From Coprothermobacterota bacterium (GTDB lineage Bacteria; Caldisericota; JANLFM01), in NCBI GenBank assembly GCA_026389455.1, contig JAPLHV010000180.1, positions 1 through 57,573 of the forward strand: 57,573 nucleotides of DNA, written 5' to 3'. The notes beneath the pieces were generated by a model. It saw only the letters and a list, made by a program, of their open reading frames with translations. It ran no database searches and had not been told where the DNA came from. Within the stretch, counting starts at the first letter, position 1. The number at the start of each line of letters is the position of its first letter. Positions 23,887 through 52,534 of this stretch are shown one piece after another. The position numbers were made by a program, and so were the translations under genes.

Positions 23887-24448
23887 AGACATGCTGCCGC
23901 AGGCTGTTCTGCGCCGCCTTTCGAGATGATTCATCGATTTGTCGGCGGTTCCAACCACACGGCAGTTTGAGCGGTTGCCTGCTTAAAAAACCTTGCTATG
24001 ACGCCCTGCCGGGAGCTGACAACTTGATGCCTTTGACGTACAATAAGCGGGAGGTGATAACGAGATGATGAGAGAGATCGATATTGAGATGGGTAATCGT
24101 ATCCAATTCCTCATGAAACGACGAGCTTTGGCCTCACGAGAGTTGGCCCGGGATTTGGAGGTCAGTCCATCCAAGTTCTTTCACATCATCAACGGGAGAG
24201 CCGCCCTCAAGCCGGACTTGGCCGTAGCTCTGGCCAAGTATTTCAACATCACGCTGGACGAACTCTTCGGCCGGGCGCCGATGCCGAACGAGATCACTGT
24301 ACGAACGAAGTTGCCGCGCGGCTACACCCGGGAAACTTGGCAAGCCCACCTGCAGAAACTAGTCGACAGGATAGGCCAGCAACTCTTGGATCGACAAAAA
24401 GCCGAGAGAGCGAACAAGCTCTGAAGAAGACATGCTGCCGCAGGCTGT
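23887..24448 (+). repeat. 21-bp direct repeats AGACATGCTGCCGCAGGCTGT (23887-23907, 24428-24448) flanking the XRE gene, plus a variant core at 24006
   Basis: Exact sequence identity; members of the CTGCC-NNN-GGCT family. Confidence 0.85.
24065..24424 (+). CDS. XRE-family HTH regulator
   Basis: ELARDLEVSPS...IING...LAKYFNITLDELFG; RBS GGAGGTG. Confidence 0.85.
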   Translation: MMREIDIEMGNRIQFLMKRRALASRELARDLEVSPSKFFHIINGRAALKPDLAVALAKYFNITLDELFGRAPMPNEITVRTKLPRGYTRETWQAHLQKLVDRIGQQLLDRQKAERANKL

Positions 24449-24568
24449 CAACTGGCGCCGAATCAGCCGTTTGATTATCATGAATAAACCACCGGCGCTG
24501 GTTGCGTCGCCTTGCCCCTGACGAGATATAGCGGGCAGTCGACGAGGCCTCCAGATGAGGAGAGTGCG

Positions 24569-25540
24569 ATGAAACGAATCGCAGTTCTGACCAGCGGGGG
24601 GGATGCTCCCGGGATGAACGCGGCCATCCGTGCTGTGGTGCGAACCGGTATCGACCGAGGGTGGGAAGTCTTTGGCATTCGCCATGGTTACAAGGGATTG
24701 ATTGAAAGTGAATGCGTACCCCTTGGCTTGCGCGATGTCGGTGGCATCATTCAACAGGGGGGGACCATCCTTGGGAGCGCCCGTTGTCCCGAGTTCAAAG
24801 AGGAGGCCAGCCGGCGCAAAGCGCTGGAGAATCTCGCCTCCATCGGCATCGAAGGATTGGTGGTGATCGGGGGAAACGGCTCTCAAGCCGGTTCTCTGGA
24901 ACTCTCTCGGATGGGTTTTCCCGTGGTCGGAGTAGCTTCAACCATTGACAATGACCTGTATGGCTCGGATTTGACGATCGGAGTGGATACTGCCCTCAAC
25001 ATCGCCCTGGAGGCTATCGATCGTCTCAAGGTAACGGCCTCCTCGCACCATCGCGCTTTCCTGGTGGAGGTAATGGGGCGGGAATTCGGCTACCTGGCTC
25101 TTGTGGCTGGGATCATCGGCGGAGCGGAGGCGATCGTGCTGCCGGAAGTGGAGATCGACCCGGAGGATCTCGCCGACGAGATTCGCCGATCCTACCAGCG
25201 CGGCAAGCCCCATGCGCTAGTGGTGGTGGCAGAGGGAGCTGCCTATAACGCTGGGTTGCTGGCCCAGTACTTCCAGAGGCACCGCGACCGCCTTGGCTAC
25301 GACCTGCGGGTGACGATCATCGGCCATGTTCAACGGGGGGGCTCGCCTGGGGCTCTCGACCGTTTGTTGGCGACGCGACTGGCGGCCGGCGCCACCGCTG
25401 CCTTAGAACGGGGTGAATTCGGAGTGTTGCTGGGTTTGCGGGGCAGCGAAGTGAAGGCTACTCCTTTGGAAGAGGTCGCTTCTAGGCGAAAGGAATTGGA
25501 TCCCGCCTTGCTTGCCTTAGCCAAGGTTCTAGCCGCTTAA
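24569..25540 (+). CDS. pfkA: ATP-dependent 6-phosphofructokinase
   Basis: IAVLTSGGDAPGMNAA, TIDND, EVMGR and GHVQRGG motifs. Confidence 0.96.
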   Translation: MKRIAVLTSGGDAPGMNAAIRAVVRTGIDRGWEVFGIRHGYKGLIESECVPLGLRDVGGIIQQGGTILGSARCPEFKEEASRRKALENLASIGIEGLVVIGGNGSQAGSLELSRMGFPVVGVASTIDNDLYGSDLTIGVDTALNIALEAIDRLKVTASSHHRAFLVEVMGREFGYLALVAGIIGGAEAIVLPEVEIDPEDLADEIRRSYQRGKPHALVVVAEGAAYNAGLLAQYFQRHRDRLGYDLRVTIIGHVQRGGSPGALDRLLATRLAAGATAALERGEFGVLLGLRGSEVKATPLEEVASRRKELDPALLALAKVLAA

Positions 25541-25598
25541 TCCCAAGAGACCACGACGGACAATGCCGACAAGGGCGATAAGGATGTAGAATAGAGCT

Positions 25599-25985
25599 GT
25601 GTTTAGGCGTATTCGATGTTTGGATTGGGGATTGGCGCTATTGGTAAGCGCTCTCTTGGTGGGTTGCACACCGCCCTTCGCCTCTCCTTTGCCGAGCGGC
25701 AATGGATCTCCGGTAGCGCCGACAAACCCGACGATGACGCTTTCACCCGCCCAAACCCTACCCAGCCAGACGGTTACTCCCAGCAAGGCGCTTCGTTTTA
25801 TCAGCAGTGCGGCGGCCAACCTGCGAGAAGGGCCGGGAGAGCAATACGAGGTGATCGGTCGCTTCCCACGCGGCGCCGAAGTGGAACTCCTCTGGCAGGA
25901 GGGAGAGTGGGCTAGTGTCCGGGTGGAGGGGAAGACGGGTTTCCTCTATCTTGGTTTCCTCACCCCGATACGGCCGACTCCTTGA
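25599..25985 (+). CDS. SH3-domain lipoprotein
   Basis: Lipobox LLVGC; ANLREGPG...W..V...GKTGF bacterial SH3 pattern. Confidence 0.8.
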   Translation: MFRRIRCLDWGLALLVSALLVGCTPPFASPLPSGNGSPVAPTNPTMTLSPAQTLPSQTVTPSKALRFISSAAANLREGPGEQYEVIGRFPRGAEVELLWQEGEWASVRVEGKTGFLYLGFLTPIRPTP

Positions 25986-26043
25986 GCATTCTTGCGTCAA
26001 GCGAAGAGGCATGCGAATCAATCATGAAGGTGAAAAAGGAGGC

Positions 26044-26931
26044 ATGATGAATTGCACACATTGTGGCAGTCCCTTGCATGAGGGGGACAGATTCTGTTGG
26101 AAATGCGGGCAAAACACTCCCGACTCACAGGGAGAGAAAGAGGAAACACCGCTGACTTCCGAGGGCCGGCAGCCGACAGATGTGGCCCAGCCGGCAGCCC
26201 CAGCAATCGCTGTAGGGGGGGTCGCGGTTAATCAGCCGCAGCCGTCATCGCCGGCCGCCAAGGAGTTAGGTTTAGGGAAGGAACCCAACTTCTTCGATCG
26301 CAAGGAAAAGGAGGTTCCCCAAAGCGAGTTAGTCCCGCCCTCTGCTGAGCGCTCCAAGCAGATGCTGAGCTCGCGGCCCAGCGGGATCGTCGAAGAGAAG
26401 GAAGAGTTCGTCTGGCATGGACGCCGTTCGCTATTGGAGTTCATCGCCCAATGGTGCTTGGCCGCTCTCTTCTGTGTCCTTGGCATGGTCGTCCTCATCT
26501 GGCGGGTACCCCTTGCCGACAGCCTAGCCGCCTTCTTCAAGGTCAACCAGCCGATCTGGTACACCATCTGGGGGTGGGTCGCCCTGGCTCTCTTCGCGGT
26601 GGGCGTTTTCCTCGTGCTGATGATTTTCTACTACGTCTTGGGCAGCTATTACCGTCTTACCACCCAACGCTTCATCCGCCAACGCGGCTTCATTGCCCGG
26701 AAGATCGACTATGTGGAGCTGATGCGCGTCCGTGACATGGGGGTGGACCAGTCTTTCCTTGACCGCATCTTCGATGTCGGCGATCTGCAGATCCTCTCCA
26801 GCGAGCGCCTGGTTCCCGATGTCAAGGTCAACGGGATCCGTCGTCCCTACGTCATGCTGGAGGAGATCCGCCGCCGGGTGATACACGCCCGGGCAGTCCG
26901 TGGAGTGGGCATCCTGGAAGTGGACAAGTAG
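26044..26931 (+). CDS. Zinc-ribbon / bacterial PH-domain membrane protein
   Basis: CTHCG...FCWKCG, two TM helices, YRLTTQR...QSFLDRIFDVGDL. Confidence 0.8.
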   Translation: MMNCTHCGSPLHEGDRFCWKCGQNTPDSQGEKEETPLTSEGRQPTDVAQPAAPAIAVGGVAVNQPQPSSPAAKELGLGKEPNFFDRKEKEVPQSELVPPSAERSKQMLSSRPSGIVEEKEEFVWHGRRSLLEFIAQWCLAALFCVLGMVVLIWRVPLADSLAAFFKVNQPIWYTIWGWVALALFAVGVFLVLMIFYYVLGSYYRLTTQRFIRQRGFIARKIDYVELMRVRDMGVDQSFLDRIFDVGDLQILSSERLVPDVKVNGIRRPYVMLEEIRRRVIHARAVRGVGILEVDK

Positions 26932-26960
26932 CCGGGTTTGGCCTATCGTTCCGCTGATGC

Positions 26961-27045
26961 GCGAAGGTGGCGGAATTGGCAGACGCGCTGGACTTAGGAT
27001 CCAGTGGTTCATACCATACGGGTTCGACTCCCGTCCTTCGCACCA
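26961..27045 (+). tRNA. tRNA-Leu(TAG)
   Basis: GCGAAGG...CCTTCGC-ACCA acceptor stem, anticodon TAG, long variable arm, GGTTCGACTCC. Confidence 0.96.
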
Positions 27046-27133
27046 CCTTATTAGCCCCCGGCAGGGTGTTCTGTGCCCCACGCCGCGCACTTTCCCGGCG
27101 AGGGAAAGCCGCCCTAGATAGAGAGGTGAAATT

Positions 27134-28108: not shown

Positions 28109-28143
28109 TGGAAGCTGTTGAGCGGATTTTCTTTCCTGACCCC

Positions 28144-28172
28144 TTGACAGGGGTGAACCGGTTTGTTATAGT
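28144..28172 (+). promoter_or_regulatory. sigma70 promoter
   Basis: TTGACA-17 bp-TATAGT. Confidence 0.8.
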
Positions 28173-28178
28173 AGTGCT

Positions 28179-28251
28179 GTAAACGATAACTTGCCTGTCT
28201 TCCCACCTCCCCCATGGCAGGGGTTGCCGCCCGGCAGCCCCTGTTTTTTTT
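28179..28251 (+). ncRNA. Candidate ~73-nt small RNA with C-rich loop and intrinsic terminator
   Basis: Follows the promoter directly; hairpin loop CCCACCTCCCC; terminator CAGGGGTTGCCG/CGGCAGCCCCTG followed by a T run. Confidence 0.55.
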
Positions 28252-28392
28252 GATGGTGCAAAGCCCTCCCGTCATCATCCAGCCAAACCGAACCGTGTTG
28301 GACGATTCCCCCCTGATCTGAGAAAATAGCCGGACTATTAAAGCGATGCCGAGCGAGGCGTATTCGGCCGCTGGGAACTGAAGGAGTCTGAA

Positions 28393-35252: not shown

Positions 35253-35360
35253 AGTGGTTTAGTGGTTAAGTGGGTCAGTAGGTCAGTGGATAAGTAAATA
35301 AGCTGATCAATGAGAATTACTCGACCACTTAACCACTGAATTACTCAACTACTTAATTAC
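35253..35360. repeat. Inverted arrays of degenerate 8-bp repeats
   Basis: AGTRGNNN-like unit x6, then complementary ...ACCACT/ATTACT units x5-6. Confidence 0.7.
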
Positions 35361-36742: not shown

Positions 36743-37870
36743 TTGTCTAAACACCCTGCCGGGGGCTATCTTGCTGCCGGGGGCTATCTTGCTGCCGGGG
36801 GCTATCTTGCTGCCGGGGGCTATCACCCTGCCGGCCAAAAAGAGCTCCACTCGGATTGGGCTATTATCGCCCAGGATCAGCTTGCGGAGGAATGCCGGAA
36901 GACCGAAAGCCTTAGCCAGTTGGAGGAGCTTCGTGTGCGCACCCTGGGCAAGAAAGGACAGCTCACGGCTCTCCTGCGCAGATTGGGAGATTTACCTTCC
37001 GAGCAGCGCAGGGACGCCGGCGCCCGCTTGAACCATCTCAAGCAATCGCTGGAGGCGATCCTGGCAGCGCGGGCCGAAGTTCTTGAGGAAGCAGCCATCA
37101 GTCGCCGCCTCCTGGCGGAGCGGGTAGACGTCACCCTTCCCGGCTTCCAGGTGCGCGTCGGACACCGCCATCCGTTGTGCCGCACCCTGGAAGGGATCGA
37201 GGATATCTTCCTCTCCCTCGGTTTCGACATCGTCGAAGGCCCGGAGGTGGAGTGGGACAGCAACAATTTCGAGGCATTGAACATGCCTGCTGAACACCCC
37301 GCCCGCGATATGTGGGACACCTACTACATCACCGAGCGGATGCTCTTGCGCACCCACACTTCCCCGGTCCAGATCCGCACGATGAAAACGAGAAAGCCGC
37401 CAATCCGGGTCATTGCTCCCGGTATCACCTACCGCCACGAGGCCATTGACGCCACCCACATGGATATCTTCTACCAAGTTGAGGGGCTGGTGGTGGACAG
37501 GGGGATCTCCTTCGCCAATCTCAAGGGAGTCCTCAGCCTTTTCGTGGCCGAGGCCTTCGGGCCGGAGCGGATCACCAAGTTCGTCCCCAGTTATTTCCCT
37601 TTCACCGAGCCCTCAGCCGAGATGATGGTCTCCTGCGGACTGTGCGGCGGGGAGGGTTGTTCCGGCTGCGGCCATTCCGGTTGGTTGGAGATCATGGGCT
37701 GTGGCCAAGTGCATCCCCAAGTGCTGCGCAACTGCGGCATCGACCCGGAAGACTTCACCGGTTTTGCTTTCGGCATGGGGGTGGAACGGATTGCCATGTT
37801 ACGCTTCAACATCCCCGAGATCCGCCTCTTCCTGGAGAACGATAGCCAGTTCCTGAAGCAATTTCCATGA
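36743..37870 (+). CDS. pheS: Phenylalanyl-tRNA synthetase alpha subunit (TTG start inferred; in-frame repeat near N terminus)
   Basis: HPARDM, LRTHTSPVQ, YFPFTEPS and GFAFGMGVERIAM motifs. Confidence 0.93.
   Translation: MSKHPAGGYLAAGGYLAAGGYLAAGGYHPAGQKELHSDWAIIAQDQLAEECRKTESLSQLEELRVRTLGKKGQLTALLRRLGDLPSEQRRDAGARLNHLKQSLEAILAARAEVLEEAAISRRLLAERVDVTLPGFQVRVGHRHPLCRTLEGIEDIFLSLGFDIVEGPEVEWDSNNFEALNMPAEHPARDMWDTYYITERMLLRTHTSPVQIRTMKTRKPPIRVIAPGITYRHEAIDATHMDIFYQVEGLVVDRGISFANLKGVLSLFVAEAFGPERITKFVPSYFPFTEPSAEMMVSCGLCGGEGCSGCGHSGWLEIMGCGQVHPQVLRNCGIDPEDFTGFAFGMGVERIAMLRFNIPEIRLFLENDSQFLKQFP
36750..36836 (+). repeat. Tandem 18-bp array CTGCCGGGGGCT-ATCTTG (4 full + 1 partial)
   Basis: Read directly from the sequence. 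Confidence 0.92.
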
Positions 37871-40302
37871 AGATCCCCTATTCCTGGTTGGAAGAGATCA
37901 ACGGGCGCCTGCCGTCGCCCGGCGAGCTGGCCGACCTCCTGCTGAGCGCCGGACTGGAGGTGGAAGAGACGCTACCGTTGGCTTGTCCCTTCAGCAAGGT
38001 AGTGACAGCTCGCATCATTGCCATGGAGACCATCCCTGGTGATCTGCATAATCTTCTCGTGCGCGTCGAGGCAGGTTCCCTGGGCAACTTTCAAGTCGTT
38101 AGCGGGGCGCCCAATCTGGCTGTCGGCCTGGTGGCGCCGTTGGCTCTACCCGGATCGATTCTACCGGGCTTGGTTATTGAGCGCCGAACCTTCAACGGTC
38201 TGGAATCCGAGGGGATGCTCTGCTCGCGAGCCGAGTTGGGGCTCGAGAAGGAGCTTCTCCCCCTGGGCGAGGAAGGGGTCGCTGTTCTGCCCGAGGAGAG
38301 CCCGCTCGGCGCTGACCTGGGTGGGCTGCTGACACTCCCCGATACCCTCTTCACCATTAAAGTCACCGCTAACCGCCCGGACTGGAACTCAGTCCTTGGC
38401 ATCGCCCGGGAGATCGCCGTCTTCACCGGTGAGCCTCTACGACCCCTGCTTGAGTTCCACGGGCGCGAGGATCCCACACCTGCTTCCACCCTAGTGGCAG
38501 TCGAAGTGGAGGATCCACTCCTCTGCCTTCGCTACTTGGCCACCGTGATCTGCGATACTCGGATTCAGCCTTCTCCCTTATGGATGGCCGGCCGTCTGTG
38601 GAAGAGCGGGATGCGCCCCATCTCCAATGTCGTCGATGCCACCAACTACGTCATGCTGGAGGTCGGCCAACCGCTTCACGCTTTTGACCTGGACCAGGTA
38701 ACCGAGCGGCGCATCGTTGTCCGCCGAGCCCGGCCAGAGGAGACTCTGGTGACCTTGGACGGAGCCAACCGAACCCTGGCCGGCAGCGTTCTCTTGATCG
38801 CCGATCCGCAGAAACCTCTAGGCATCGCCGGGGTGATGGGCGGATTGAACAGCGAGATGACCTCGGCCACGCGGAATCTGGTCCTGGAATCCGCCTTTTT
38901 TCAAAATGCCTCCATTCGTCGCACCAGCCGCTTGTTGGGCCTTAAGACAGAGGCCTCTGAGCGTTTTGTGCGGGGCGTTAGCCATCATAGTGTGGAGGAA
39001 GGCTCTCGCCGGGCCACTGCCATGCTCTCCACCCTAGCCGGCGGCCGAGTTCCGGCCGGCCGCGTGGACTGCGGCCAACCGCCGCCGCCCAAGCGCCTGC
39101 GACTTCGTCCTGAGCGGACCAACCAGGTCTTGGCCACCGACCTCTCCCGCGAGGAGATCTACACCAGTCTGGACCGTTTAGGTTTTTCCCCGACTGGTGC
39201 GACCGTCTTTGAAGTCGAGTCGCCCCCTTGGCGGCAAGATCTCCATGAGGAAGTCGATCTGATCGAGGACATCGCTCGCCTCATCGGCTATGACCGGGTG
39301 CCTCGTCGTATGCCGGCCGGTCCGCTGCGGCGCGGTCAAGAGCCCCCCTGGCGACGCAAATGGCCGGAATGGCGTTCCTTTCTACTGGGGCAGGGGCTGA
39401 CTGAAGTGGTCACCGCTCCCTTGGTTCCACCAGAGTGGAATACCTTCACCTTCCTCAAGGTTGATCAGCCCTTGGCTTCAACGATTGATGCTCGCGGGCA
39501 GGCACTCGCGGACAGGCCCTCAATGGTCTTGCGCAACCCCATTTCTCCTGAGCGATCTGCCCTGCGGCTAAGTCTCCTGCCCTCTCTTCTGCAGGTAGTG
39601 GCCACCAACCAACATCGTGGCCACCCTCTCTTCGGTTGCGTGGAGTTGGGGAAAGCCTACCGATGGCGAGGGGAGGAGGAACTGCCCGATGAGCCGCGCT
39701 TGCTTGCCCTGGCTGTAGCCGTGCGGACAGAGGCGGATTGGCAGGGGGGAATTCGGGAGATGAGCTTTTTCCGATTGAAGGGTTGGTTGGAGACGCTCTT
39801 TAACGAGGAGCTGCGTTTTCAAACGATACCGTACGAACATGCCTTACACCCCGGCCGCAGCGCTGCCCTCTTTCACAAAGACCGTCTAGTAGGCGTTTTT
39901 GGCGAGGTTGGTCCCGCCCTGGGCAAGCGCTTCGCGTTGAAGGAGGGAGTCTTGCTGGCTGAGATCGCCATTGAATCATTCCTCGCTCAAGCTATGCCTC
40001 TTTTCCAATCTTTTTCACGCTTTCCCGCCGCCGATCGTGACATAGCCCTGGTGGTCTCTACCGATACTCCCTACAGCCAATGGGAACAGGTCATACGGGA
40101 GGCAGGGGGGCCGCTTCTCGAAGAGGTTGCCTTCTTCGACCGCTACCAGGGCGAGAACATTCCTCCTGGCACGATAAGCCTGGCTTTCTCTTTACGATTC
40201 CGGAACAGCGAGCGGACCCTCGCCGAGGCGGAAATCAACCGGGCGATGGTCTCCATTGAATGCTCCCTGGCGGATCTGGGAGCGGTCCTGCGCAGCCGTT
40301 GA
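37867..40302 (+). CDS. pheT: Phenylalanyl-tRNA synthetase beta subunit
   Basis: [33 protein letters not shown] and [11 protein letters not shown] motifs. Confidence 0.96.
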
Positions 40303-40356
40303 GGGAGGTTCCCGAGACCTTCTTAAATGGCGACACGCTGACCGTGGCACTAGAAG

Positions 40357-40422
40357 ACATGCTGCCGCAGGCTGGGTACATGCTGCCGCAGGCTGGGTAC
40401 ATGCTGCCGCAGGCTGGGTACA
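40357..40422 (+). repeat. Three tandem 21-bp units ACATGCTGCCGCAGGCTGGGT
   Basis: Read directly from the sequence. Confidence 0.92.
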
Positions 40423-40452
40423 ACGGCGCACTGCTCTTTCATCAAAGCGCAG

Positions 40453-40577
40453 AACTCCCTGCCGGGGGCTATCGAGCTGCCGGGGGCTATCGAGCTGCCG
40501 GGGGCTATCGAGCTGCCGGGGGCTATCGAGCTGCCGGGGGCTATCGAGCTGCCGGGGGCTGTCTAGCTGCCGGGGGG
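40453..40577 (+). repeat. Tandem 18-bp array CTGCCGGGGGCT-ATCGAG (6 cores + 1 partial)
   Basis: Read directly from the sequence. Confidence 0.92.
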
Positions 40578-41171
40578 TTCATCGTCGAGACAGAAGCCTA
40601 CCTTGGATCTGACGACCGAGCCAGCCACGCCTCGCACGGACGTACCCGCCGTAATGAGACAGCCCCCGGCAGGGAGTTCTCAATGTTTGGGCCGCCCGGA
40701 TTTGCCTATATCTATCCACCCTGCCGGGGGCTGTCTAGTTGATCTATGGGATGTACAATTGCCTTAACGTGGTCACTGAACCGGAAGGCTATCCCGCAGC
40801 GGTGCTGATTAGAGCTCTGGAGCCCTGTATAGGCCAGAACTCCCTGCCGAGGGCTGACAAGCTGCCAGGGGCTACTGTGATGCGCCGTCGAAGGCCACGG
40901 GCAAGGCGGGAGGTTGAAGTAGCCAACGGTCCCGGCAAAATCTGCCAGGCGTTGGGGGTGGAACGAGGGATGAACGGATGGAACTTGCGCACAAGCGCTT
41001 TGCGCCTTGCCCCAGGGCGCGAAGCAGGGGAGATCGGGGCCGGACCACGGATCGGCGTCGACTATGCCGGGCCGTGGACTGGACACCCTGCCGGGGGCTA
41101 TCATGCCTGGCGCTTCTATGAACTTGGTAACAGAACAGCCCCCGGCAGGGTGTGACTTTCAAGGTGAGATC

Positions 41172-43532
41172 ATGGATGCCCACGCGCTGAGAGTGCTGGA
41201 CTTTCACGAGATCGTGGAGAAGCTCCTGGAGTTGACCCTAACCCCTTACGGGCGGGAGATTGCCGAGAAGCTGACCCCCTCGATGAAGCTGGAGGAAGTG
41301 CAGAAGGGTTTGCAGGAAACAACCGAAGCCCGCGAGTGGCTGGATAAGTTTGGCGATTTCGGCTGGGGCGAGCTCTTTGACCTGCGCCCCGTCTTGGCGA
41401 AGTGCCGGGTGAGCGGGATGCTGGCACCCGAGGAGTTGCTCCACGTCAAATCCTTCCTCGTTCTCCTGCGCCAGATCAAGAACAAAATGATGGAAGCGCG
41501 GGCGTACGCCACTTTGACCGGTTTGGCCAAGGAGCTTCACGCCCTGCCATCTTTAGAGAAAGAGATTGAGAAGGCCATCGGACCGAACGGTGAGATTCTG
41601 GATGGCGCCTCCTTCGAGCTGTTGCGCTTTCGCAAGCAATCACGCTTGATCGAGAGCCGTCTGCGCGACAAGCTGCAGGATCTGATCGAATCTCCTTCGG
41701 TGCGCAAGCTGTTACAAGACCCCATCATCACCGTGCGAGACCAACGCTTTGTGATCCCAGTCAAACAGGAGTACAAGTCTCAGCTTCCCGGGGTGGTCCA
41801 CGACCGCTCTTCCTCCGGCCAAACCGTCTTTCTCGAGCCGTTGGCTACCCTCAATATCAACAACGAGCTGCGTGAGGTTCAACTGAAGATCAAGCAGGAA
41901 GAGGAGCGCATCCTCGTCGAGTTGACTGTCAAGGTGGGGGAGCTTGTTCCGGATTTTAACCGCTCTTTGCAGAATCTGGCCCGCCTCGATTTCATCTTCG
42001 CCAAAGCCCGTCTTTCCGACCTGCACAAGGCCAGCCCCCCACTTGTTTCGAACGGCGCTTTCCTTGAACTGTACAACGCTCGCCATCCCTTGTTGCGAGT
42101 GCCCGCTGTGCCGATCGGAATTGATGTGGGCGGCAAATTCCGCACCCTCGTGATTACCGGCCCTAACACCGGTGGAAAGACCGTCTCTTTAAAGACGGCC
42201 GGCCTGTTGATGCTGATGGCCCAAGCCGGTTTGCATATCCCGGCCTCTTCCCAGTCGCAGATCGGAATCTTCCAGAACGTCTACGCCGACATCGGCGACG
42301 AGCAATCGCTAGAGCAATCGCTTTCCACTTTCAGCTCCCACCTCTCCCAGATCGTCAAGATCATCAAAGAGGCCGAGCCCAATATGCTGATCTTGTTAGA
42401 TGAGCTGGGGGCGGGCACCGATCCGCGAGAAGGCGCCGCCCTGGGAACGGCGGTGTTGGAGTATTTCCATAACCGAGGGGTGCGCACCATCGTCTCTACT
42501 CACCATACCGAGTTGATCTCCTTCGCCTATACCCACAGTGACGCCCGCAACGCCTCACTGGAGTTCGATACTGAGACGCTTTCTCCGACTTACCGCATGA
42601 AGATGGGAGTGCCCGGCTCGAGTCACGCTTTCCTCATTGCCAAACGACTGGGCCTCTCCACAGAGGTGTTAGCCCAAGCCCAGACCTTCCTGACTGTCGA
42701 GCGCGAGCGCCTCGACGAGTTGATCACGCACCTGGAGGAGGAACGGCAGAAAGCTGAGATCGAGCGCAAAGGGGCCGAGGAGGCAAAATCGGAGGCAATC
42801 AAGCTGCGGGAGGAGTACAAGCAGCAGAGTGAGGAACTGAAGAAGAAGAAGAAAGAGATCCTCCGCTCTTCGTATGCCGAGGCGCAGAAAGTGGTCAACG
42901 ATACGCGCAGCCAGATGGAAGCTCTGCTGGAACAGTTGCGCCAGGAGAAACGACCCTCATCCCGCACCGTGGCCATCAAGAAGGAGATTGAGCAGGCACG
43001 GAACGAGGTCGGCGAGCAAGCGATGGACACCGACCGGCGCGGCCTGCCCGTGTCTCTTGCTAAGTTGCGGCCTGGAGAAGTAGTGTGGATCCCCCGCTTT
43101 AAGTCGCAGGGAGTGATCATCGAGATCGACCTTACTGCCGCCCGGGCACGGGTACAAGTGGGCACGATGCGGGCGTCGGTGACCGAGAAAGAGATTGAGG
43201 CGCTGGAAGGGGGAGAGCCGCTTTCCACTATGCGGGCCTCTCCTGCATTATCCGATGGGGATCGCCCTATCCTGGTGGCTCGACCCGACCTCTCTTGGAA
43301 GTTGGATTTGCATGGGGTACGAGTAGAAGACGCCTTGGTGACGCTGGATAAATACCTAGACGATGCCGTTCTGTCCAACTTCCCCTTCGTCTATATTCTT
43401 CACGGGCGGGGAACAGGAGCTCTGCGACAGGCCATCCGCCAACATCTCCGTTCGCATCCCTCGGTGTTGCGCTTCCGCATGGGGGAAGGGAATGAGGGCG
43501 GCGAGGGTGTCACCATCGTCTACCTGAAATAA
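41172..43532 (+). CDS. mutS2: MutS2 (Smr-domain) protein
   Basis: HDRSSSGQTVFLEP, ITGPNTGGKT, LLDELGAGTDP; Smr LDLHG...HGRGTG. Confidence 0.95.
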   Translation: MDAHALRVLDFHEIVEKLLELTLTPYGREIAEKLTPSMKLEEVQKGLQETTEAREWLDKFGDFGWGELFDLRPVLAKCRVSGMLAPEELLHVKSFLVLLRQIKNKMMEARAYATLTGLAKELHALPSLEKEIEKAIGPNGEILDGASFELLRFRKQSRLIESRLRDKLQDLIESPSVRKLLQDPIITVRDQRFVIPVKQEYKSQLPGVVHDRSSSGQTVFLEPLATLNINNELREVQLKIKQEEERILVELTVKVGELVPDFNRSLQNLARLDFIFAKARLSDLHKASPPLVSNGAFLELYNARHPLLRVPAVPIGIDVGGKFRTLVITGPNTGGKTVSLKTAGLLMLMAQAGLHIPASSQSQIGIFQNVYADIGDEQSLEQSLSTFSSHLSQIVKIIKEAEPNMLILLDELGAGTDPREGAALGTAVLEYFHNRGVRTIVSTHHTELISFAYTHSDARNASLEFDTETLSPTYRMKMGVPGSSHAFLIAKRLGLSTEVLAQAQTFLTVERERLDELITHLEEERQKAEIERKGAEEAKSEAIKLREEYKQQSEELKKKKKEILRSSYAEAQKVVNDTRSQMEALLEQLRQEKRPSSRTVAIKKEIEQARNEVGEQAMDTDRRGLPVSLAKLRPGEVVWIPRFKSQGVIIEIDLTAARARVQVGTMRASVTEKEIEALEGGEPLSTMRASPALSDGDRPILVARPDLSWKLDLHGVRVEDALVTLDKYLDDAVLSNFPFVYILHGRGTGALRQAIRQHLRSHPSVLRFRMGEGNEGGEGVTIVYLK

Positions 43533-43533
43533 T

Positions 43534-43742
43534 GGCTCTTTCTCATCCCGAGTGGGTAAGGCGGTCAGAGGGGAAAAAGAGGTGTGCCATGTGGAAGTCT
43601 GCTCAGGAGTCCTTATTCGAGAGAACCTTGCGACTTGACCCTCCTTGGAGGATCACAAAGATAGAGTTCCGTGAAGGCAAAGGGATCATCAAGGCAGACA
43701 ACAACAAGCTGGTAGGTCATCCACTTGAAATGAGAAGGAATC
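43534..43742 (+). mobile_element. Internally deleted ISL3-family remnant / MITE
   Basis: GGCTCTTTCTCATCCCGAGTGGGT left end and imperfect inverted right end (43719-43742); LFERTLRLDPPWRITKIEF resembles an ISL3 transposase N terminus. Confidence 0.72.
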
Positions 43743-45061: not shown

Positions 45062-46531
45062 ATGGCTGGAGAGAGGATTCTTTCCTTTATTGATCAAGCC
45101 GTGCGGCGGGAGCGTCACGATTTCCTCCGCTATCATTTGCTGTGGGTTTTTGCCTTTACTTCCTTGGCACTTTTCCCTCTCCTCTTCCTGGCGCGTTTCC
45201 TGGAGTTCACCCCTCCTCCCTGGGCTTTCTTCCCCCTTTTCCTGCCGGGGGTATTGTATTTGCTTTCCAGAGCCCGCGGCCGGCTGCCGGGGGTCGCGGA
45301 GACGGCCTGGAAGGCTGACCGCTACTACAGCCTAGGGGAACAATTGATCACTGCCCGGGAGGCGTTGGCTCTGCCACAGCCCGGCCAGTTGGCGCTTCGC
45401 TTGGTCGATCTCACGGAGGAACGCTTAGCAGGATACGAATCGCTTCCCTGGCCGCGCCGCTGGCTGCGATGGCCATTGGCGCTGCTGTTGTCAGTCTTGG
45501 CGCTTTCCGTGTTGTTGATCTGGCTGCCTCCTTACCGCCTTCTTCGGGCTGAGCAATTAACGCCGCAATTGGTTGAACTAGCCCAACAATACGCACGGAT
45601 CCCCGGCCATGACCCAATCACCTATATGGAGCTGATCCAAGCCAAACGGGCGCTGGAAAAGGGGGATCTAGGGGAGGCGCGAAACCTCCTCGAGCAGGCT
45701 GCTGGCCGCCTGGAGGGAGAACAGCAACGAGACCGTGAAGGCCAATCAGCGCTGGCGGCCAGTCCCGACCTATCCTTCCTGGCCAAAGGGATGGAGGGCG
45801 ACCGAGCTGCCCTCAGCCAACTGGAGCAGCTTTCCACCCAAGAACAGTTACGGATGGCACAGGAGATCCAGCAGATGCTGGCCAACCTCCCCGAGGGAGC
45901 CTTGCGCACAGCGCTGCAGGATCTCGCTACATCTTTGCGTCAGAACGACACCTCACTGCTGAAGCGCACGCAAGCATTGGAGGAATTGCTGCCGCAAGAG
46001 CAAGCCTTGCTTTCCTCTCTCGGCCAAACCTTATCCCAGTTGGGCGGGAAAAGTGGGGGAGAGGGCGACCAAAGCGCTCAACTTCCCGGTGATCACCAGG
46101 CGGGAGCGGAGGGCCAGGTGCAACCAGCTTCCGGTTCGGGTACGCAAGGCGGCCTCTCCCAGGGCGAGATGGAGAGTGTACCAGCTTCCCAGCGGTACCA
46201 GAAAGCACCCCCCCAGATGGCAGCAGCCGGAGACCAGGGATTACTCTATGTTCCCCAGAACTCCCTGCCGGGGGCTGACAAGCTGCCGGGGGCTAGCATG
46301 CCGCTCCCTCCCGGAGGAACGCCACTCGTCCTGCCGCAGCAAGGCGAACCATCCTATCAGACCGGTCAACCGGGCGGGGAGACCGAAAATGCCCAACCAT
46401 TCCAAAACTACCGCGATGCCATGCCCCGCTACCAGCAACAAGCCGTTGAGCAGCTCACCCGCCAAGCTCTCCCCCCGGAGTTGGAGTCCTTGGTGCGATC
46501 CTATTACCTTTTCTTGGAGGATGCGCCGTGA
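45062..46531 (+). CDS. Membrane protein with coiled-coil/low-complexity tail (MoxR-vWA operon member)
   Basis: TM helices, L.EQLITA.E motif, C-terminal LPPELESLVRSYY. Confidence 0.75.
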   Translation: MAGERILSFIDQAVRRERHDFLRYHLLWVFAFTSLALFPLLFLARFLEFTPPPWAFFPLFLPGVLYLLSRARGRLPGVAETAWKADRYYSLGEQLITAREALALPQPGQLALRLVDLTEERLAGYESLPWPRRWLRWPLALLLSVLALSVLLIWLPPYRLLRAEQLTPQLVELAQQYARIPGHDPITYMELIQAKRALEKGDLGEARNLLEQAAGRLEGEQQRDREGQSALAASPDLSFLAKGMEGDRAALSQLEQLSTQEQLRMAQEIQQMLANLPEGALRTALQDLATSLRQNDTSLLKRTQALEELLPQEQALLSSLGQTLSQLGGKSGGEGDQSAQLPGDHQAGAEGQVQPASGSGTQGGLSQGEMESVPASQRYQKAPPQMAAAGDQGLLYVPQNSLPGADKLPGASMPLPPGGTPLVLPQQGEPSYQTGQPGGETENAQPFQNYRDAMPRYQQQAVEQLTRQALPPELESLVRSYYLFLEDAP

Positions 46532-47493: not shown

Positions 47494-47494
47494 G

Positions 47495-48409: not shown

Positions 48410-50106
48410 TCTGGGTTCAACCGCTCTTCCTGCTCTCCCTGGCCTCCATCTTGGCACTGATCTTCATCTATCTCCGCCACCCCCGGCGGATGCGAAAGAG
48501 CGTGTCTCAAGTTTTCCTTTACCTGCGAGCGCGTCGCGAACTGCTGACCCGCTTTACCCGCTGGCGCTTCTTGCGCAGCTTGATCCTGCTATTTCAGGCG
48601 CTGACGCTGGTCTTCCTCGGCCTTGCCGCCGCCGGCCCGCAGACCAACCTCTACCCTCTGGCCGGCCGTCGTTGCGCCTTGGTGCTGGATAACTCGCTCT
48701 CGATGATGGCGCAAGATCTCACTCCGGACCGTTTCCAGGTGGCGCGGGAGAAAGCCCGTCAACTGGCCGGGGAGCTGCTCCGGGGCAACAATCAAGTCTC
48801 CTTGTGGGCGCTCAATTCCAAGCCCGGATTGGTACTCGACTTCACCGATGAGCTACCCGAGCTCCTGCAAGCCATCGATAACTTGGCGCCGAGCTTCTTA
48901 TCACCGACGTCCGCTGACGACTTGCTCGCTCTTTTGGCCGCTCGCGCCACAGGAGAGGCTTTGGTGGTCTACGTACTCTCAGACTTTGCCTTGGAGCTTA
49001 CCCCGCGGCAGTACCCCAATCTGGAATTGCACTCCTTGGTTGTGGGAGAACCCTTGCCCAATTACGCCTTGGTCGGGTGCGCCCGCGAAGGAGAGTCCCT
49101 GTGGGTGAAGGTGGCCAACTTCAGCCCCGCTGCTCGAACCTTGCACCTGGTGGTCGACGATGGGCTAGCGCCTTTGCAGCGCGAGCTTCCGCTGGAGGCC
49201 ATGGAGACGGTAGATCTCTCCATTCTGGTCGTCGGAACCCCGTCTCTCTTGCGTGTTTCCATTCAGGAAGAGGATCTTCAGCCCTGGGACAACTTTCTCT
49301 TCCTGCCCCTCACCGCGCCCCCGCGGGTTCTCCTGGTGGGGACTTCCCGCTACCTGGCCGGCGCCCTGGAATCGGCTGGCTTTCATGTCGTCCAGGTAGG
49401 GCCGGAGGACTACCGCCCGGAGATTCCCGCCGACCTTCTAGTCTTCGAAGGAACGCTGCCATCGGAGCTTCCGACAAAACCTTTCTTCGTCATCCACCCG
49501 CCTCCCGGAAATGCCTTTTTTCCCTGGACGGGGACTGTCACGAGGCCCCTTCTGTGGGCAGAAACGTCCCCACTGCTGGATTATGTGGATCTCGCACGGG
49601 TTGCTTTCTGGGAAGCCCCGATCATCAAGCTCTCGCCGACCATGCGCCCGCTTCTGCGAAGCGCTCAAACAACGGTCTTGGCGGCCGGACAGCAGCAAGG
49701 AATACGCACCATCCTCCTCGGACCGAGCCTGACCCTTTCCAACTTGCCCCTGCTGCCAGCCTTCCCAGTCTTCCTCGCCCAAGCCATGCGCTGGCTTTCC
49801 GGCGACCCCCTTCCCAACCAACCCTTGGAGGAGGAAGCCCTCCTTCTTTCCCCGCTGGTGGCTGACTACGCTGGGGGAGGCGATCCCCCCGGCCTCTACG
49901 GCCGCCAAGCGGCAGACGGCCTGCGTCTCTTCGGAGTAGCCCCACTGGAACAACAGGAGGCGAACCTGATTCGCCACACCGAGCTGGAGGGCTTGGGCGG
50001 TGTCAACGAACAGCGTACGGCGCCTCGCGACTTGACGATTTTATTCCTTATGTTGGCCTTATTCTCCTTCCTCTTAGAAGAACTGCTGCGCCGCCGCTAT
50101 GATTGA
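48406..50106 (+). CDS. BatA-like / vWA domain membrane protein
   Basis: N-terminal BatA-type TM segment, LDNSLSM MIDAS, C-terminal TM. Confidence 0.85.
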   Translation: MIWVQPLFLLSLASILALIFIYLRHPRRMRKSVSQVFLYLRARRELLTRFTRWRFLRSLILLFQALTLVFLGLAAAGPQTNLYPLAGRRCALVLDNSLSMMAQDLTPDRFQVAREKARQLAGELLRGNNQVSLWALNSKPGLVLDFTDELPELLQAIDNLAPSFLSPTSADDLLALLAARATGEALVVYVLSDFALELTPRQYPNLELHSLVVGEPLPNYALVGCAREGESLWVKVANFSPAARTLHLVVDDGLAPLQRELPLEAMETVDLSILVVGTPSLLRVSIQEEDLQPWDNFLFLPLTAPPRVLLVGTSRYLAGALESAGFHVVQVGPEDYRPEIPADLLVFEGTLPSELPTKPFFVIHPPPGNAFFPWTGTVTRPLLWAETSPLLDYVDLARVAFWEAPIIKLSPTMRPLLRSAQTTVLAAGQQQGIRTILLGPSLTLSNLPLLPAFPVFLAQAMRWLSGDPLPNQPLEEEALLLSPLVADYAGGGDPPGLYGRQAADGLRLFGVAPLEQQEANLIRHTELEGLGGVNEQRTAPRDLTILFLMLALFSFLLEELLRRRYD

Positions 50107-52534
50107 ACTGGACTCCCCCCTCTGGCTGTTGGCCTTGTCGGTTTTCCCTCTCTTCCTGCTGGGCTGGCGACAGCGCCGGCGAAGTCTTCAGGTCTTGCGC
50201 ATGGTCTCTTTTTTACTGCTCGTCTTGGCCCTCACCCTGCCGCAGTGGGTTCAACTGATGCCGGGCGGGACGATCCTCTACTTGGTGGACATCTCGCGTT
50301 CGGCTCAAGCCTCCTTGTCGTTGGAGGATCTCCCGCAAGGAAATGGAGTCAGCAATCAACTAGTCCCTTTCGGCGGCCCCCACGATACGGACCTGGGGAA
50401 GGCGCTCAGCGGAGCAGCAGCTTTGCTTTCGGTTGGCGAGGGGAAAGTTGTCCTGGTCAGTGACGGCCAGGACACGGCAGGCCGCTTGGACGAGGGGATC
50501 GCCGCCCTGGCCGATAAGCGGATCCCGGTCGATGTGGTGGGCACATCACTCCTGCTTAAGGATGCCTCTTTGCTCTTGTCGGCGCCGACCTACGTGGCGG
50601 TGGGCGAGCGGTTCTCACTCGTCGCCCGGATTCAGTCCCAGGGAGTCCCCGCTGTCCAGCTAAGCCTCCGCGCGGACGGGGTAGAAGTACACCAGGAACG
50701 ATTGGCGCTGCAAGAGGGGGAGAACCTCTTCCGTTTCTCCTTCGCTCTTTCGGAACCCGGCATTCACACCCTGGAAGGGCGCATCGCAGCTCCCGAGGAC
50801 ACCCTCAAAGAGAACGACGAGGCAAGCGCCTATCCTTCCGTGCTCGCTCCCCGGGGGATGCTGGTGGTCTCCTCCCAGCCGAACGGGGAGTTCTTCACCC
50901 GTCTCATCAAGGACCAGGGCTTGCCTGCTGTCCTCACTTCTCCATCGGATCTTCCGGCTGACTTTCTCTCTCTTTCCGCCTACGAGGGGATCGCCCTGAT
51001 CGATGTCTCACGAACCGAGTTGCAAACTCCTCAAGTGGCTGCTCTCTCCTCTTTCGTGCAAGTCTTGGGCGGCGGTCTCTTGGTGGTCGGCGGCGGGCAC
51101 TCTTTCACCTTGGGCGGCTATTTCCGCAGCGACTTGGAGGAGATCCTCCCAGTCGTCTCCAAGCCTCGCCTGGAGGAAGACCTCCCGGAGATGGCAGTGG
51201 TCTTCGTGGTAGACAACTCCTCATCGATGTGGAACCTCACCAGCGAAGTGAAGAAGCTGGACTTGGCCCAAGAGGTGGCCATTCGCGCCGCCGCCCCTCT
51301 GCGTGCCAAGGATCAAGTGGGGGTTCTGATCTTCTCCGATGCCGCCCAATGGCTTCTTCCCCTCGGCGCCGGCAGTGATTTCTCGGCGATCAAAGAAAAG
51401 ATCCTCACCGAAGGGCCAGGCGGGGGAACCAATGCCTACCTGGCTTTGAAAGAGGCCTACCGCCAACTGGCTGCTTCCAGTGCGCCTCTTAAGCATGTCA
51501 TCTTCGTCTCGGACGGCAAGACCAGGGAAGGCGATTTCCCCACTCTTGTCGAGGAGGGCCGGCGCCAAGGCATCTTCACCACTGCCTTGGCTGTGGGAAC
51601 CGATGCCGATTTGCCTTTCATGGAGACATTGGCACAGCTCGGGGAAGGCAAATACGCCGCAGTCAGCGCCCCGGACCAGATCCCTACTGTCCTTTACCCA
51701 CCCAACGAGGAGCGGCCGGAAGAACCGCTGGCCGAAGGGCCGGCCGGTCTCCGTCTCCTGGCGACGACCAGCAATCTGGAGGAATTCGCGCTACCAGACC
51801 TGGATGGCTACCTAAAAACTCAATTGAAACCGAAGGCAGAAGTGATCTACCAAGCGCTTCCGCGCGAGGAGCCGGCCCTTGCTTCTTGGATGCAGGGTTC
51901 CGGGCGAGTCGCGGTTTGGTTGTCCGATTTTTCCGGAGCTTGGACGGCGCCCTGGGAAACTTGGCCGCAGCAGGCTGCCTTTTGGACTGCCCTTTGGCGG
52001 TGGGCAGCGCCGGCTAGCAGCGAGTTGGCCACTTCCTTGCAGGTCGTCGGCGAGTCGTTGCAGATCGAGGTGGCTTCCTCCTCCTCAACTCCTCAGCTCC
52101 CGGCAGGGTGTCCTATGATCCTCTTGGAGGGACCGGATGGGCAATCCTTGCGGGCCCAAGCCGAGAGGACTGGTCCCTCCCGTTATCAAGCACGCGCGAT
52201 GCTCTGGGGAAGAGGCGCCTATACCCTGAATGTTTCTCAGGGGGAGCGCCAGTCTCTCTTTGCTGTCTGGGCGCCGGAACGGGAATTGATCGGGGTAGGG
52301 ATCGATTGGGGAACTCTAGGGCGAATTGCCCAAGAGACCGGCGGCCAATGGCAAAATGCTATCGGAGAAAATCTAATAAATAATCTCCCCCTTTCCTCCA
52401 GGAAGAACGCTATGGCGCCTTGGCTTCTCGTTGCTTGTATGCTTCTATTCTTGATGGAGATTGCTTTGCGGCGTTTCCAGGGAGTCGCGCGAAGGACCGT
52501 TGAGGAGGAGGGAGAGGGGGTTGACAGGGGCTAA
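50099..52534 (+). CDS. vWA + glutamine-amidotransferase-like domain membrane protein
   Basis: VDISRS and VDNSSSM MIDAS-like motifs, GGGLLVVGG..SF..GGY, C-terminal TM. Confidence 0.85.
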   Translation: MIELDSPLWLLALSVFPLFLLGWRQRRRSLQVLRMVSFLLLVLALTLPQWVQLMPGGTILYLVDISRSAQASLSLEDLPQGNGVSNQLVPFGGPHDTDLGKALSGAAALLSVGEGKVVLVSDGQDTAGRLDEGIAALADKRIPVDVVGTSLLLKDASLLLSAPTYVAVGERFSLVARIQSQGVPAVQLSLRADGVEVHQERLALQEGENLFRFSFALSEPGIHTLEGRIAAPEDTLKENDEASAYPSVLAPRGMLVVSSQPNGEFFTRLIKDQGLPAVLTSPSDLPADFLSLSAYEGIALIDVSRTELQTPQVAALSSFVQVLGGGLLVVGGGHSFTLGGYFRSDLEEILPVVSKPRLEEDLPEMAVVFVVDNSSSMWNLTSEVKKLDLAQEVAIRAAAPLRAKDQVGVLIFSDAAQWLLPLGAGSDFSAIKEKILTEGPGGGTNAYLALKEAYRQLAASSAPLKHVIFVSDGKTREGDFPTLVEEGRRQGIFTTALAVGTDADLPFMETLAQLGEGKYAAVSAPDQIPTVLYPPNEERPEEPLAEGPAGLRLLATTSNLEEFALPDLDGYLKTQLKPKAEVIYQALPREEPALASWMQGSGRVAVWLSDFSGAWTAPWETWPQQAAFWTALWRWAAPASSELATSLQVVGESLQIEVASSSSTPQLPAGCPMILLEGPDGQSLRAQAERTGPSRYQARAMLWGRGAYTLNVSQGERQSLFAVWAPERELIGVGIDWGTLGRIAQETGGQWQNAIGENLINNLPLSSRKNAMAPWLLVACMLLFLMEIALRRFQGVARRTVEEEGEGVDRG

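Follow-up and report, generated by a model that had tools for sequence, protein, structure and literature searches.

A probable lineage-restricted family of very small, insertion-prone repeats in the genome of an uncultured freshwater Coprothermobacterota bacterium

The small dispersed repeats (SDRs) of Nostoc and related cyanobacteria, reportedly described by Elhai and colleagues in 2008 (Genome Res 18:1484), are said in papers that cite that work to include elements (SDR4 to SDR6) of some 20 bp. As a group, SDRs are reported to be about 21 to 27 nt long, both dispersed and tandem, and variable in copy number, with mobility inferred from sites without the element; to our knowledge, the enzyme is known for none of them. 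Repetitive extragenic palindromic (REP) elements carry a conserved GTAG or CGTC tag at one end (PMC3733652). Rickettsia palindromic elements (RPEs) are described as inserting in frame into unrelated metabolic and housekeeping genes and adding peptide segments to their products (PMC10969869). Here we describe a repeat found in a 57,573-nt stretch of DNA, hereafter the window, which is contig JAPLHV010000180.1 (C145 in our numbering) of assembly GCA_026389455.1, a metagenome-assembled genome (MAG) of 2.63 Mb in 263 contigs with 57.6% G+C (genome G000). The repeat is built around a 12-nt core, CTGCCNNNGGCT, and we consider this motif probably to be the core of a lineage-restricted, very small, non-coding and insertion-prone repeat family.

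An initial reading of the window from its letters alone (the sequence-only reading) had listed about 26 copies of the core at 14 loci, and those copies are present: there are 24 exact matches to CTGCCNNNGGCT, against a mean of 0.99 and a maximum of 5 in dinucleotide-preserving shuffles (24 or more in 0 of 100), and two further cores, at 24006 and on the reverse strand at 52095, are CTGCCGGGAGCT, the main form with 1 mismatch. Tandem Repeats Finder (TRF) delimits three arrays in the window, at 36756-36824 (18 nt x 3.8), 40357-40422 (21 nt x 3.1), and 40459-40576 (18 nt x 6.6). The genome-wide count against a Markov expectation that the same reading had proposed gave 1320 copies of CTGCCNNNGGCT in G000, where background models predict 1.2-5.4 (order 1), 0.9-2.4 (order 3), or 0.9-1.4 (order 5). 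The core forms CTGCCGGGGGCT, CTGCCGCAGGCT, and CTGCCGCGGGCT are present in 837, 246, and 143 copies, respectively, and CTGCCGGGGGCT is the most frequent 12-mer in G000. A census allowing up to 2 mismatches per unit and requiring at least one exact core per locus identified 714 arrays with 1676 units, of which 345 loci are single units and 369 are multi-unit, the longest having 13 units. Together they cover 35,123 bp, or 1.33% of the genome. Neighboring exact cores are spaced by 18 nt in 438 of 529 cases and by 21 nt in 38. The arrays are also clustered, since 36.8% have another array within 150 bp, compared with 14.4% expected and a maximum of 18.6% in 200 placements. Several of the statistics given here and below treat related copies as independent.

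The distribution of the family is narrow. The G5 form of the core, CCTGCCGGGGGCT, was found in all four genomes of the genus (475, 50, 61, and 146 copies in G000 to G003) and in both genomes of the sister genus (5 and 1 copies), and there were 0 copies in the 25 other genomes searched, which sample the remainder of the family and phylum. The CA and CG forms, represented by CTGCCGCRGGCT, number 389, 131, 78, and 161 copies in the same four genomes and 78 in the sister-genus genome G005, which has 92 cores. The loci from G005 (L177-L206) belong almost solely to the CA subfamily, and its arrays have a period of 23-24 nt in which the whole element (head, core, and tail) is repeated, in contrast to the 18-nt core-plus-linker period. 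Two patterns searched against viral contigs gave 0 matches and thus no sign of a phage origin; three metagenome contigs hold a two-unit pattern. A search of literature main texts with four 12-mers, with supplements outside the search, returned nothing on this element.

The full element is about 18-27 nt long and comprises a head, C-A-G-R-A-C-N-X-Y, the 12-nt core, CTGCCG-Y'X'-GGCT, and a 6-nt tail, RTYNWG. The head hexamer differs with the core form, being RACNCC before GG, GACATG before CA, and RACNCG before CG cores, and a weaker C-A-G is found farther upstream. Between units there is a linker hexamer, RTCNNG (ATCGAG, GTCTAG, GTCAAG, and others), and a similar tail follows the last core. The semi-conserved hexamer before each core that had been noticed in the window is therefore real, but it comprises two classes, the head before the first unit and the linkers between units. 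In 600 of 683 first units, compared with 276 expected under independence, the dinucleotide XY that precedes the core and core positions 7-8 are reverse complements of each other, and the same complementarity is seen in 112 of 157 first units from the relatives. Among internal units, only 115 of 584 are complementary.

This complementarity would place a small hairpin at the start of the core. Covariation was analyzed in an alignment of the first 150 of 196 distinct first units, 12 of them from the window and the others from relatives. For a 3-bp stem formed by columns 11-13 with columns 18-20, 91.8% of cells are paired compared with 73.0% after shuffling, a level reached in 0 of 500 shuffles; 93 cells have changed on both sides compared with 40 in shuffles, and all slid controls are lower. 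The pattern supports a stem in which XY and the first C of the core would pair with core positions 6-8 around a TGCC loop, with compensatory changes that appear to keep it: the three subfamilies, CC/GG, TG/CA, and CG/CG, all retain pairing (predicted stems CCC/GGG, TGC/GCA, and CGC/GCG). A different structure, a GCC-N3-GGC triloop hairpin, had been suggested from the palindromic look of the core. It was not borne out, as its stem falls in invariant columns where nothing supports it, and single units fold no better than shuffles. An outer helix between head and tail, equivalent to terminal inverted repeats, was rejected with 50.4% of cells paired. Rfam contained no family matching the window or four repeat-rich loci.

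To follow the element between close relatives, G000 was compared with 669 kb sampled from related genomes, mostly from G003. Among 140 colinear orthologous blocks, 55 have the same length in both genomes and 37 show a length difference that is a multiple of 18 nt. A further 25 differ in some other way, in 21 the partner is empty, and 2 fall in other categories, so that 85 of 140 comparable sites differ between close relatives. Of the 21 partner-empty sites, 14 are truly free of core-like sequence. Units therefore enter as insertions, in both orientations, where close relatives have an empty site, and they create no target-site duplication; none was seen at the junctions listed from the mpg alignment and the orthologous blocks. 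The inserted length of single units ranges from 16 to 28 nt, and occasionally a few native bases are replaced. No bias of element strand was detected relative to GC skew (229 versus 208, p = 0.34) or to local gene strand (200 versus 237); in a 263-contig MAG, replication direction itself is not knowable. Some orthologous arrays differ in subfamily in every unit, for example a CA array in G003 opposite a GG array in G000, which points to rapid turnover. The proposal that a fixed short sequence is inserted into the chromosome, rather than arising by point mutation, is thus upheld by orthologous sites that are empty, filled, or filled with another copy number, and the alignment to close relatives that had been recommended revealed empty sites in mpg and at 46265 and 52095.

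The clearest case in the window is mpg, encoding methylpurine-DNA glycosylase (40299-41155, forward strand), which carries seven insertions of the element in 860 bp and is now read in two frames. Alignment with G001 to G003 shows five insertions that are specific to G000 (the 63-nt and 108-nt arrays and insertions of 21, 23, and 18 nt) and two that are shared with G002 only. An array of three 21-nt CA units lies in frame in the N-terminal region (40355-40417, forward strand) and is absent from G001, G002, and G003. It is followed by an in-frame array of six 18-nt G5 units (40454-40561, forward strand; 40459-40576 by TRF), also absent from G001-G003, which adjoins a native core-like sequence, (C/T)TGCCGGGGGG, kept by the relatives. 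Further downstream are an in-frame 21-nt singleton on the reverse strand (40660-40680) and a frame-shifting 23-nt singleton on the forward strand (40717-40739), both absent from G001-G003, and then two slightly degenerate units (40840-40875, forward strand) at a site where G002 has 5 units and G001 and G003 are empty. An 18-nt singleton consisting of GACACC and the core (41082-41099, forward strand) is absent from G001 and G002, and another 18-nt singleton at the 3' end of the gene (41136-41153, reverse strand) is common to G002 and absent from G001. The Pfam profile of the glycosylase is matched at positions 26-67 in the first ORF (open reading frame) and at positions 68-180 in the second, with the break exactly at the 23-nt insertion. 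The gene is intact in G001 and G002, and in G000 it is probably decaying into a pseudogene.

Public contigs from four runs in three studies match 40547-41294 of the mpg region, or parts of it, with 0 differences. They include contigs from a DNA run of another study (40547-43593), from the DNA run of a third study (40820-41373), and from two RNA-library runs (40547-43255, 40547-40913, and 40884-41294). Since these independent contigs are identical to the window, each of the five single insertions in mpg is real DNA, and the frame-shifting one of 23 nt is present unchanged. Removal of the units from RNA was also considered and set aside, as the RNA-library contigs retain the units, although such libraries may contain DNA and contigs cannot reveal rare spliced forms.

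Once in place, copies gain and lose 18-nt core-plus-linker steps. In 123 arrays, linkers are identical in 78.4% of within-array pairs compared with 9% of pairs between arrays, and such array-specific linkers indicate that arrays grow by copying their own units. The arrays are polar, with a near-perfect head unit and decay towards the tail: the head unit has on average 0.07 core mismatches and late or tail units have about 0.6 (138 arrays), and a decayed extra unit was found after the last detected unit in 181 of 710 arrays and before the first in 36 of 707. The sequence-only reading had attributed the arrays to a mechanism that repeatedly deposits the sequence at the same site. The insertion of a fixed short sequence stands, but the arrays appear mostly to have grown in place.

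The position of the element relative to genes was determined with a crude gene caller based on ORFs and codon log-odds, which predicts 1944 genes and 78% coding sequence in G000. Only 413 of 1270 exact cores (32.5%) lie in predicted coding sequence (CDS), and 67.5% lie outside it, in the 22% of the genome that is non-coding. Those within CDS occur in both orientations (219 and 194) and in all six frames; 130 of the 413 fall within the first tenth of the gene length and 46 within the final tenth. This depletion from genes and concentration at gene ends fits filtering by selection. Copies in genes had been described as usually tolerated in frame; this holds at 46265 and 52095 and for units deep in ORFs, and has exceptions in the insertion lengths of 16-28 nt, in the 23-nt insertion that splits mpg, and outside genes, where 13 of 20 length differences are not multiples of 3. 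In-frame tolerance is largely a matter of survivorship.

There are 75 arrays that lie 150 nt or more inside strong ORFs, where their translations are hexapeptide repeats, among them (DSPRQL)n, (LPGAVN)n, (AGGYQD)n, and (TAPGNM)n. In-frame arrays located deep in ORFs imply that proteins would be made with hexapeptide-repeat insertions in any of the six frames. The ten hosts with the largest arrays were identified, and all matched Pfam families. They are a Lon-like protease (arrays of 6 and 8 units), HypF (8 units), CTP synthase (PyrG; 7 units, within the N-terminal domain), an M24 peptidase and a SpoIID-domain protein (both arrays absent from G003), glycogen synthase (GlgA), Mfd, a TerB-domain protein, a molybdopterin hydroxylase, and the DNA polymerase III alpha subunit (DnaE).

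As to how a sequence of this size reaches new sites, we tentatively suggest, as a possibility below even odds, that units are seeded by template switching or repair synthesis from existing copies. In this model, a hairpin mini-element would be seeded at a new site, would then expand and contract by slippage, and would finally be filtered by selection. The hairpin would form in single-stranded DNA and make the sequence prone to copying; seeding would consist of copy synthesis from an existing copy, by template switching or by repair synthesis at a stalled fork, and would be primed where the nascent end matches the head (CAG, CAGA, or CAGGA). The 18-nt steps may reflect replication slippage on the self-complementary arrays, and a 131-nt array does fold with z = -4.74. 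Copy synthesis is favored here because of the ragged ends of the insertions, the replaced native bases, the head matches, and the clustering of arrays. Quasi-palindrome-templated correction could, in addition, keep a stem complementary without selection. Immediately 5' of the empty sites, the native bases agree with the upstream part of the head consensus at 37 of 82 positions, compared with 25.5 +/- 4.1 in random sequence (a level attained in 22 of 5000 simulations), and three perfect matches, CAG, CAGA, and CAGGA, were found. A head-like flank could represent either a loose target preference or the priming of copy synthesis by a short match.

Several observations weigh against this model or against the evidence on which the family as a whole has been built. 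The head-match test gives a modest result (p about 0.004), a few of its rows represent expansions or repeat a site already counted, and many junctions have no head match. At the 14 truly empty sites the native sequence matches the core at 6-8 of 12 positions at best, compared with a random mean of 7.35, which counts against template switching. Template switching also leaves unexplained why only this sequence spreads, and neither an enzyme nor a donor was found among the Y1 genes, the RAYT-like genes (REP-associated tyrosine transposases), the unit-flanked genes, or the long repeats. With regard to the hairpin, the predicted folding of single units is weak, at -2.2 to -4.5 kcal/mol, and does not surpass that of shuffles (z between -1.05 and +1.03), so that the stem would need help to form; internal units of 18-nt arrays do not have the stem, and the hairpin therefore cannot be required for array growth. 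With three subfamilies, no more than two compensatory events are independent, and the covariation counts are inflated by common descent. Length differences in the orthologous blocks are multiples of 3 in 17 of 17 cases inside CDS compared with 7 of 20 outside, a contrast that is partly circular, as a frame-breaking insertion removes the ORF call, as in mpg, and the caller is crude. Finally, contigs from the public runs break at the arrays (36785/36795 and 40386/40547), so that array copy numbers in the window have no independent confirmation. Seeding by homology as a general rule was rejected, since resemblance to the core at the 14 truly empty sites does not exceed that of random sequence; the six-unit mpg array and the pheS array, which adjoin native core-like sequence, are exceptions.

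A less likely alternative to copy synthesis, although one that merits serious attention, is that a single-strand-specific enzyme acting in trans, either an HUH Y1 transposase of the RAYT or IS200/IS605 kind or another, moves the hairpin unit next to CAGRA, with arrays growing at the head. Insertion of the IS200/IS605 type characteristically leaves no target duplication, and none accompanies the units. A stem kept by compensatory changes, a subset of insertions directly 3' of native CAG, CAGA, or CAGGA, and polar arrays with a near-perfect head unit would likewise suit an enzyme. Variable boundaries (16-28 nt), native bases that are sometimes replaced, a CAGRA context far from obligatory at 45-48% per position, and the lack of strand bias relative to GC skew or gene strand do not. 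Known TnpA and RAYT substrates carry much larger stems than 3 bp, and the stem of the unit falls far short of them. G000 does contain 10 Y1_Tnp matches, four of them full-length genes that have no exact core within 2.5 kb, except for one odd variant near contig C101. One RAYT-like Y1 gene (contig C148; L166:41-640) was detected in G000, G001, and G003, and the 10 further genomes that were searched did not contain it.

The RAYT-like genes are flanked by a palindrome of their own rather than by the unit. This GTAG-tagged palindrome, GGGCGGGTTTSAAACCCGCCC, has 107 copies in G000, 21, 20, and 32 copies in three congeners, and none in 9 other genomes searched. It occurs inside and after the RAYT-like gene, for example at L166:316-334, 601-619, 850-868, and 1000-1018. 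A unit array lies no more than 120 bp from 62 of the 107 palindromes, and in 36 of these cases the offset is fixed at 40-49 nt, an association that would speak for an enzyme. The proximity is explained by a mosaic of about 300 bp that exists in dozens of copies, and only 69 of the 714 arrays are near GGGCGGGTTTSAAACCCGCCC. In addition, G005, with its 92 cores, has neither the RAYT-like gene (as detected with this query) nor GGGCGGGTTTSAAACCCGCCC. The mosaic consists of the GTAG palindrome, about 45 nt, a head, a variable 18-nt array, and, on the right, a conserved part of about 120 nt with a CA-type unit at its end; examples in G000 are L164 (C46:1197-1910 and 4531-4849) and L165 (C250:5865-6573), and there was no Rfam match. 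A third repeat, the perfect 24-nt palindrome GGGGACAGATTTAAATCTGTCCCC, is present in about 187 copies in G000. Several truncated Y1-transposase fragments start with its translation (KGTDLF...), which hints that this palindrome has a RAYT of its own.

The search for a partner was extended to genes flanked by units on both sides, of which there are 33; they contain one similar pair, RNase J-like metallo-beta-lactamases, and no candidate. Among ten long low-copy repeats, none has a core within 400 bp. No partner gene was found in these searches, in which reverse transcriptases, Ku/LigD, and recombinases were not searched for. The idea that the motif is the excision footprint of a transposon gained no support, as no longer element, insertion sequence (IS), Y1 or RAYT gene, or other gene family was found with the unit at its ends. 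Its companion suggestion, that the motif might be located at the ends of a transposase or RAYT, was likewise negative at the Y1 and RAYT-like genes, with the qualification that a unit lies 147 bp from a RAYT-like gene, within the mosaic. A more specific version, in which the unit is a mobile element of about 20 nt with its own machinery, its 3-bp hairpin being recognized in single-stranded DNA and joined, preferentially after CAGRA, without duplication, with new units added at the head and older ones displaced towards the tail, is unlikely in our estimation. If true, it would be the smallest actively transposing DNA known outside cyanobacteria and a natural generator of hexapeptide-repeat insertions in essential proteins.

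The abundance of the element could instead be due to selection on a functional signal, such as a DNA-uptake sequence, a site bound by a nucleoid or regulatory protein, or a hairpin that terminates transcription or stabilizes mRNA. A highly conserved and strongly over-represented core, enrichment between genes and at gene ends, the small conserved stem, and restriction to one lineage, as for uptake sequences, are what would be expected of such a signal. Copies that arise as whole-unit insertions and not as point changes, head-to-tail arrays of up to 13 units, random orientation relative to genes, fast turnover at orthologous sites, reading in six frames within proteins, and the breaking of at least one gene (mpg) make this explanation improbable.

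It is more improbable still that there is no insertion at all, and that the loci are ordinary minisatellites (variable-number tandem repeats, VNTRs) that arose at pre-existing similar sequence and spread by slippage and gene conversion. Differences in 18-nt steps are indeed the commonest kind (37 of the 85 differing blocks), linkers are array-specific, arrays fold on themselves, and the mpg and pheS arrays adjoin native core-like sequence. The empty sites largely refute this explanation: 14 of them have no core-like sequence beyond chance. Moreover, 345 of the 714 loci are single units, singletons of 18-23 nt lie within conserved codons of mpg, the VWA gene, and others, and the same head and core turn up, in either orientation, at unrelated places numbering in the hundreds. 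An assembly or binning artefact, which might be suspected in a MAG of 263 contigs given that short-read assemblers mishandle repeats and public-run contigs break at arrays, has a negligible chance of being the explanation, as contigs of four runs from three studies show 0 differences over all or part of 40547-41294, the family is also present in three further genomes of the genus, partly at the same sites, and units occur at 17 of 526 contig ends, no more often than the 20 expected.

The other copies in the window lie in varied contexts. A CA-subfamily singleton (23888-23911, forward strand), with a GACATG head, a CTGCCGCAGGCT core at 23894-23905, and a GTTCTG tail, is intergenic and upstream of a helix-turn-helix (HTH) gene. 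The degenerate CTGCCGGGAGCT core occupies 24006-24017 (forward strand), and a second CA-subfamily singleton (24429-24452, forward strand) lies between the stop of the HTH gene (24065-24424) and a phosphofructokinase gene (24512-25540). A G5-subfamily singleton on the reverse strand (27047-27070, core 27053-27064) lies 11 nt past a tRNA gene (26961-27042). Two units inserted in frame (46259-46300, forward strand) are found in an ORF without a Pfam match (45062-46531); this site holds 36 nt (2 units) in G000, 1 unit in G002, and 0 in G001. An in-frame 18-nt singleton with a 1-mismatch core (52093-52110, reverse strand), in a VWA-domain gene (50099-52534), is absent from G001.

At the 5' end of pheS, an array comprising an AACACC head and four units of CTGCCGGGGGCT plus ATCTTG (36750-36827, forward strand) runs into a core-like sequence, CTGCCGGCC, that is common to all three genomes at this position. 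The array has 4 units in G000, 1 in G002, and at least 2 in G001, where the contig ends. The linkers ATCATG and ATCTTG place an ATG or TTG immediately before CTGCCG (window 36780-36835; G001 locus L005), and the pheS frame of G001 begins at an ATG that belongs to a linker. The element may thus donate start codons.

The first 22.9 kb of the window, in which the sequence-only reading had seen no copy, are indeed without any core copy, the closest being a 2-mismatch match at 23012. Positions 1-22900 have a G+C fraction of 0.45-0.55, compared with 0.57-0.61 in the remainder, and contain two long tandem arrays with a period of 153 nt (17865-18886 and 19961-20713) that resemble protein repeats. This segment may be recently acquired DNA. 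The rRNA operon (16S, 52747-54321; 23S, 54531-57555) is also without any unit. Tandem repeats of 8 and 16 nt, AGTGGTTA / ACCACTTA, occur at 35253-35360, and GTAGTTAAGTGG-like runs adjoin unit arrays on other contigs.

If the reading of these loci as a family of inserting repeats holds, it offers a natural system for studying how DNA too short to encode anything spreads, a question said to date from the first description of the SDRs of cyanobacteria. Its youth and activity make the family suited to such study, its subfamilies are built-in compensatory mutants of the stem, and the head plus core provide defined substrates for biochemical tests with Y1 proteins of the lineage, such as the RAYT-like one and those of 237-325 aa. 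Core proteins such as DNA polymerase III alpha, CTP synthase, Mfd, and the Lon-like protease would tolerate repeated 6-residue insertions in any frame. In practical terms, the repeats interfere with gene calling, to which they contribute false starts, split genes, and odd low-complexity segments, and they constitute very fast strain markers for this uncultured freshwater group.

Comparison with known repeat systems separates the unit from most of them. It differs from miniature inverted-repeat transposable elements in having no terminal inverted repeats (50.4% head-tail pairing) and no target-site duplication, and from DNA uptake sequences (DUS/USS) in that its copies are whole-unit insertions and tandem arrays, not substitutions in resident sequence. 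With IS200/IS605 elements it shares the absence of target duplication, a DNA hairpin, and a recurring 5' CAGRA, but it has no adjacent transposase gene, strand bias, obligatory target, or fixed ends, and measures about 20 nt compared with more than 600 nt. Unlike CRISPR (clustered regularly interspaced short palindromic repeats), its units abut via a 6-nt linker (438 of 529 spacings are 18 nt) with no unique spacers and no Rfam match. VNTRs and minisatellites resemble it in the gain and loss of whole units between close strains, homogeneous units, and self-pairing arrays; they differ in that one unit here occupies hundreds of unrelated sites, as a single copy at half of them, and these include sites that are empty in relatives.

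Like the RPEs (PMC10969869), the element is a non-autonomous repeat found in frame in unrelated genes, to which it adds peptide segments. The RPEs are about 150 bp long, encode one conserved peptide, and are not tandem, whereas the unit here has 18 nt, can be read in all six frames, and differs in copy number between close relatives. REP elements, bacterial interspersed mosaic elements (BIMEs), and REPINs (REP doublets forming hairpins) are similar in being hundreds of short, hairpin-bearing, lineage-specific copies that form mosaics with other motifs. REPs are mainly extragenic; of the cores described here, 67.5% lie outside predicted CDS, and 75 arrays are located deep in ORFs. The heads of the unit, RACNCC, GACATG, and RACNCG, have no GTAG or CGTC tag. 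The unit has only a 3-bp putative stem and not a stable palindrome of 20-40 nt, it forms direct tandem arrays and not inverted doublets, a third of its cores are in ORFs, and the RAYT is not flanked by it. The 12-mer of the CA core also occurs inside a Pseudomonas REPIN-group seed, CGCAGCCTGCGGCAGCGGCTA, an identity that is probably due to chance. The initial statement that the motif looks like neither a REP nor a CRISPR repeat is therefore correct with respect to CRISPR and to the tag, palindrome, and RAYT features of REPs, and needs to be tempered by the resemblance to SDRs and to REP/BIME mosaics.

The SDRs are reportedly alike in being non-coding repeats of about 20 nt that occur as singletons and in tandem, vary in copy number, and show mobility through empty sites. 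They belong to another phylum and are presumably unrelated in sequence, and the element described here appears to differ in its 18-nt period, its head and linker anatomy, its polar arrays, the putative 3-bp stem kept over three subfamilies, and its many in-frame arrays in housekeeping proteins. The unit is among the smallest insertion-prone repeats seen in bacteria. We rate the family as new, unusually small, and unusually gene-invasive, in an uncultured freshwater lineage, with SDRs, REP/BIME elements, RPEs, and VNTRs as its nearest counterparts.

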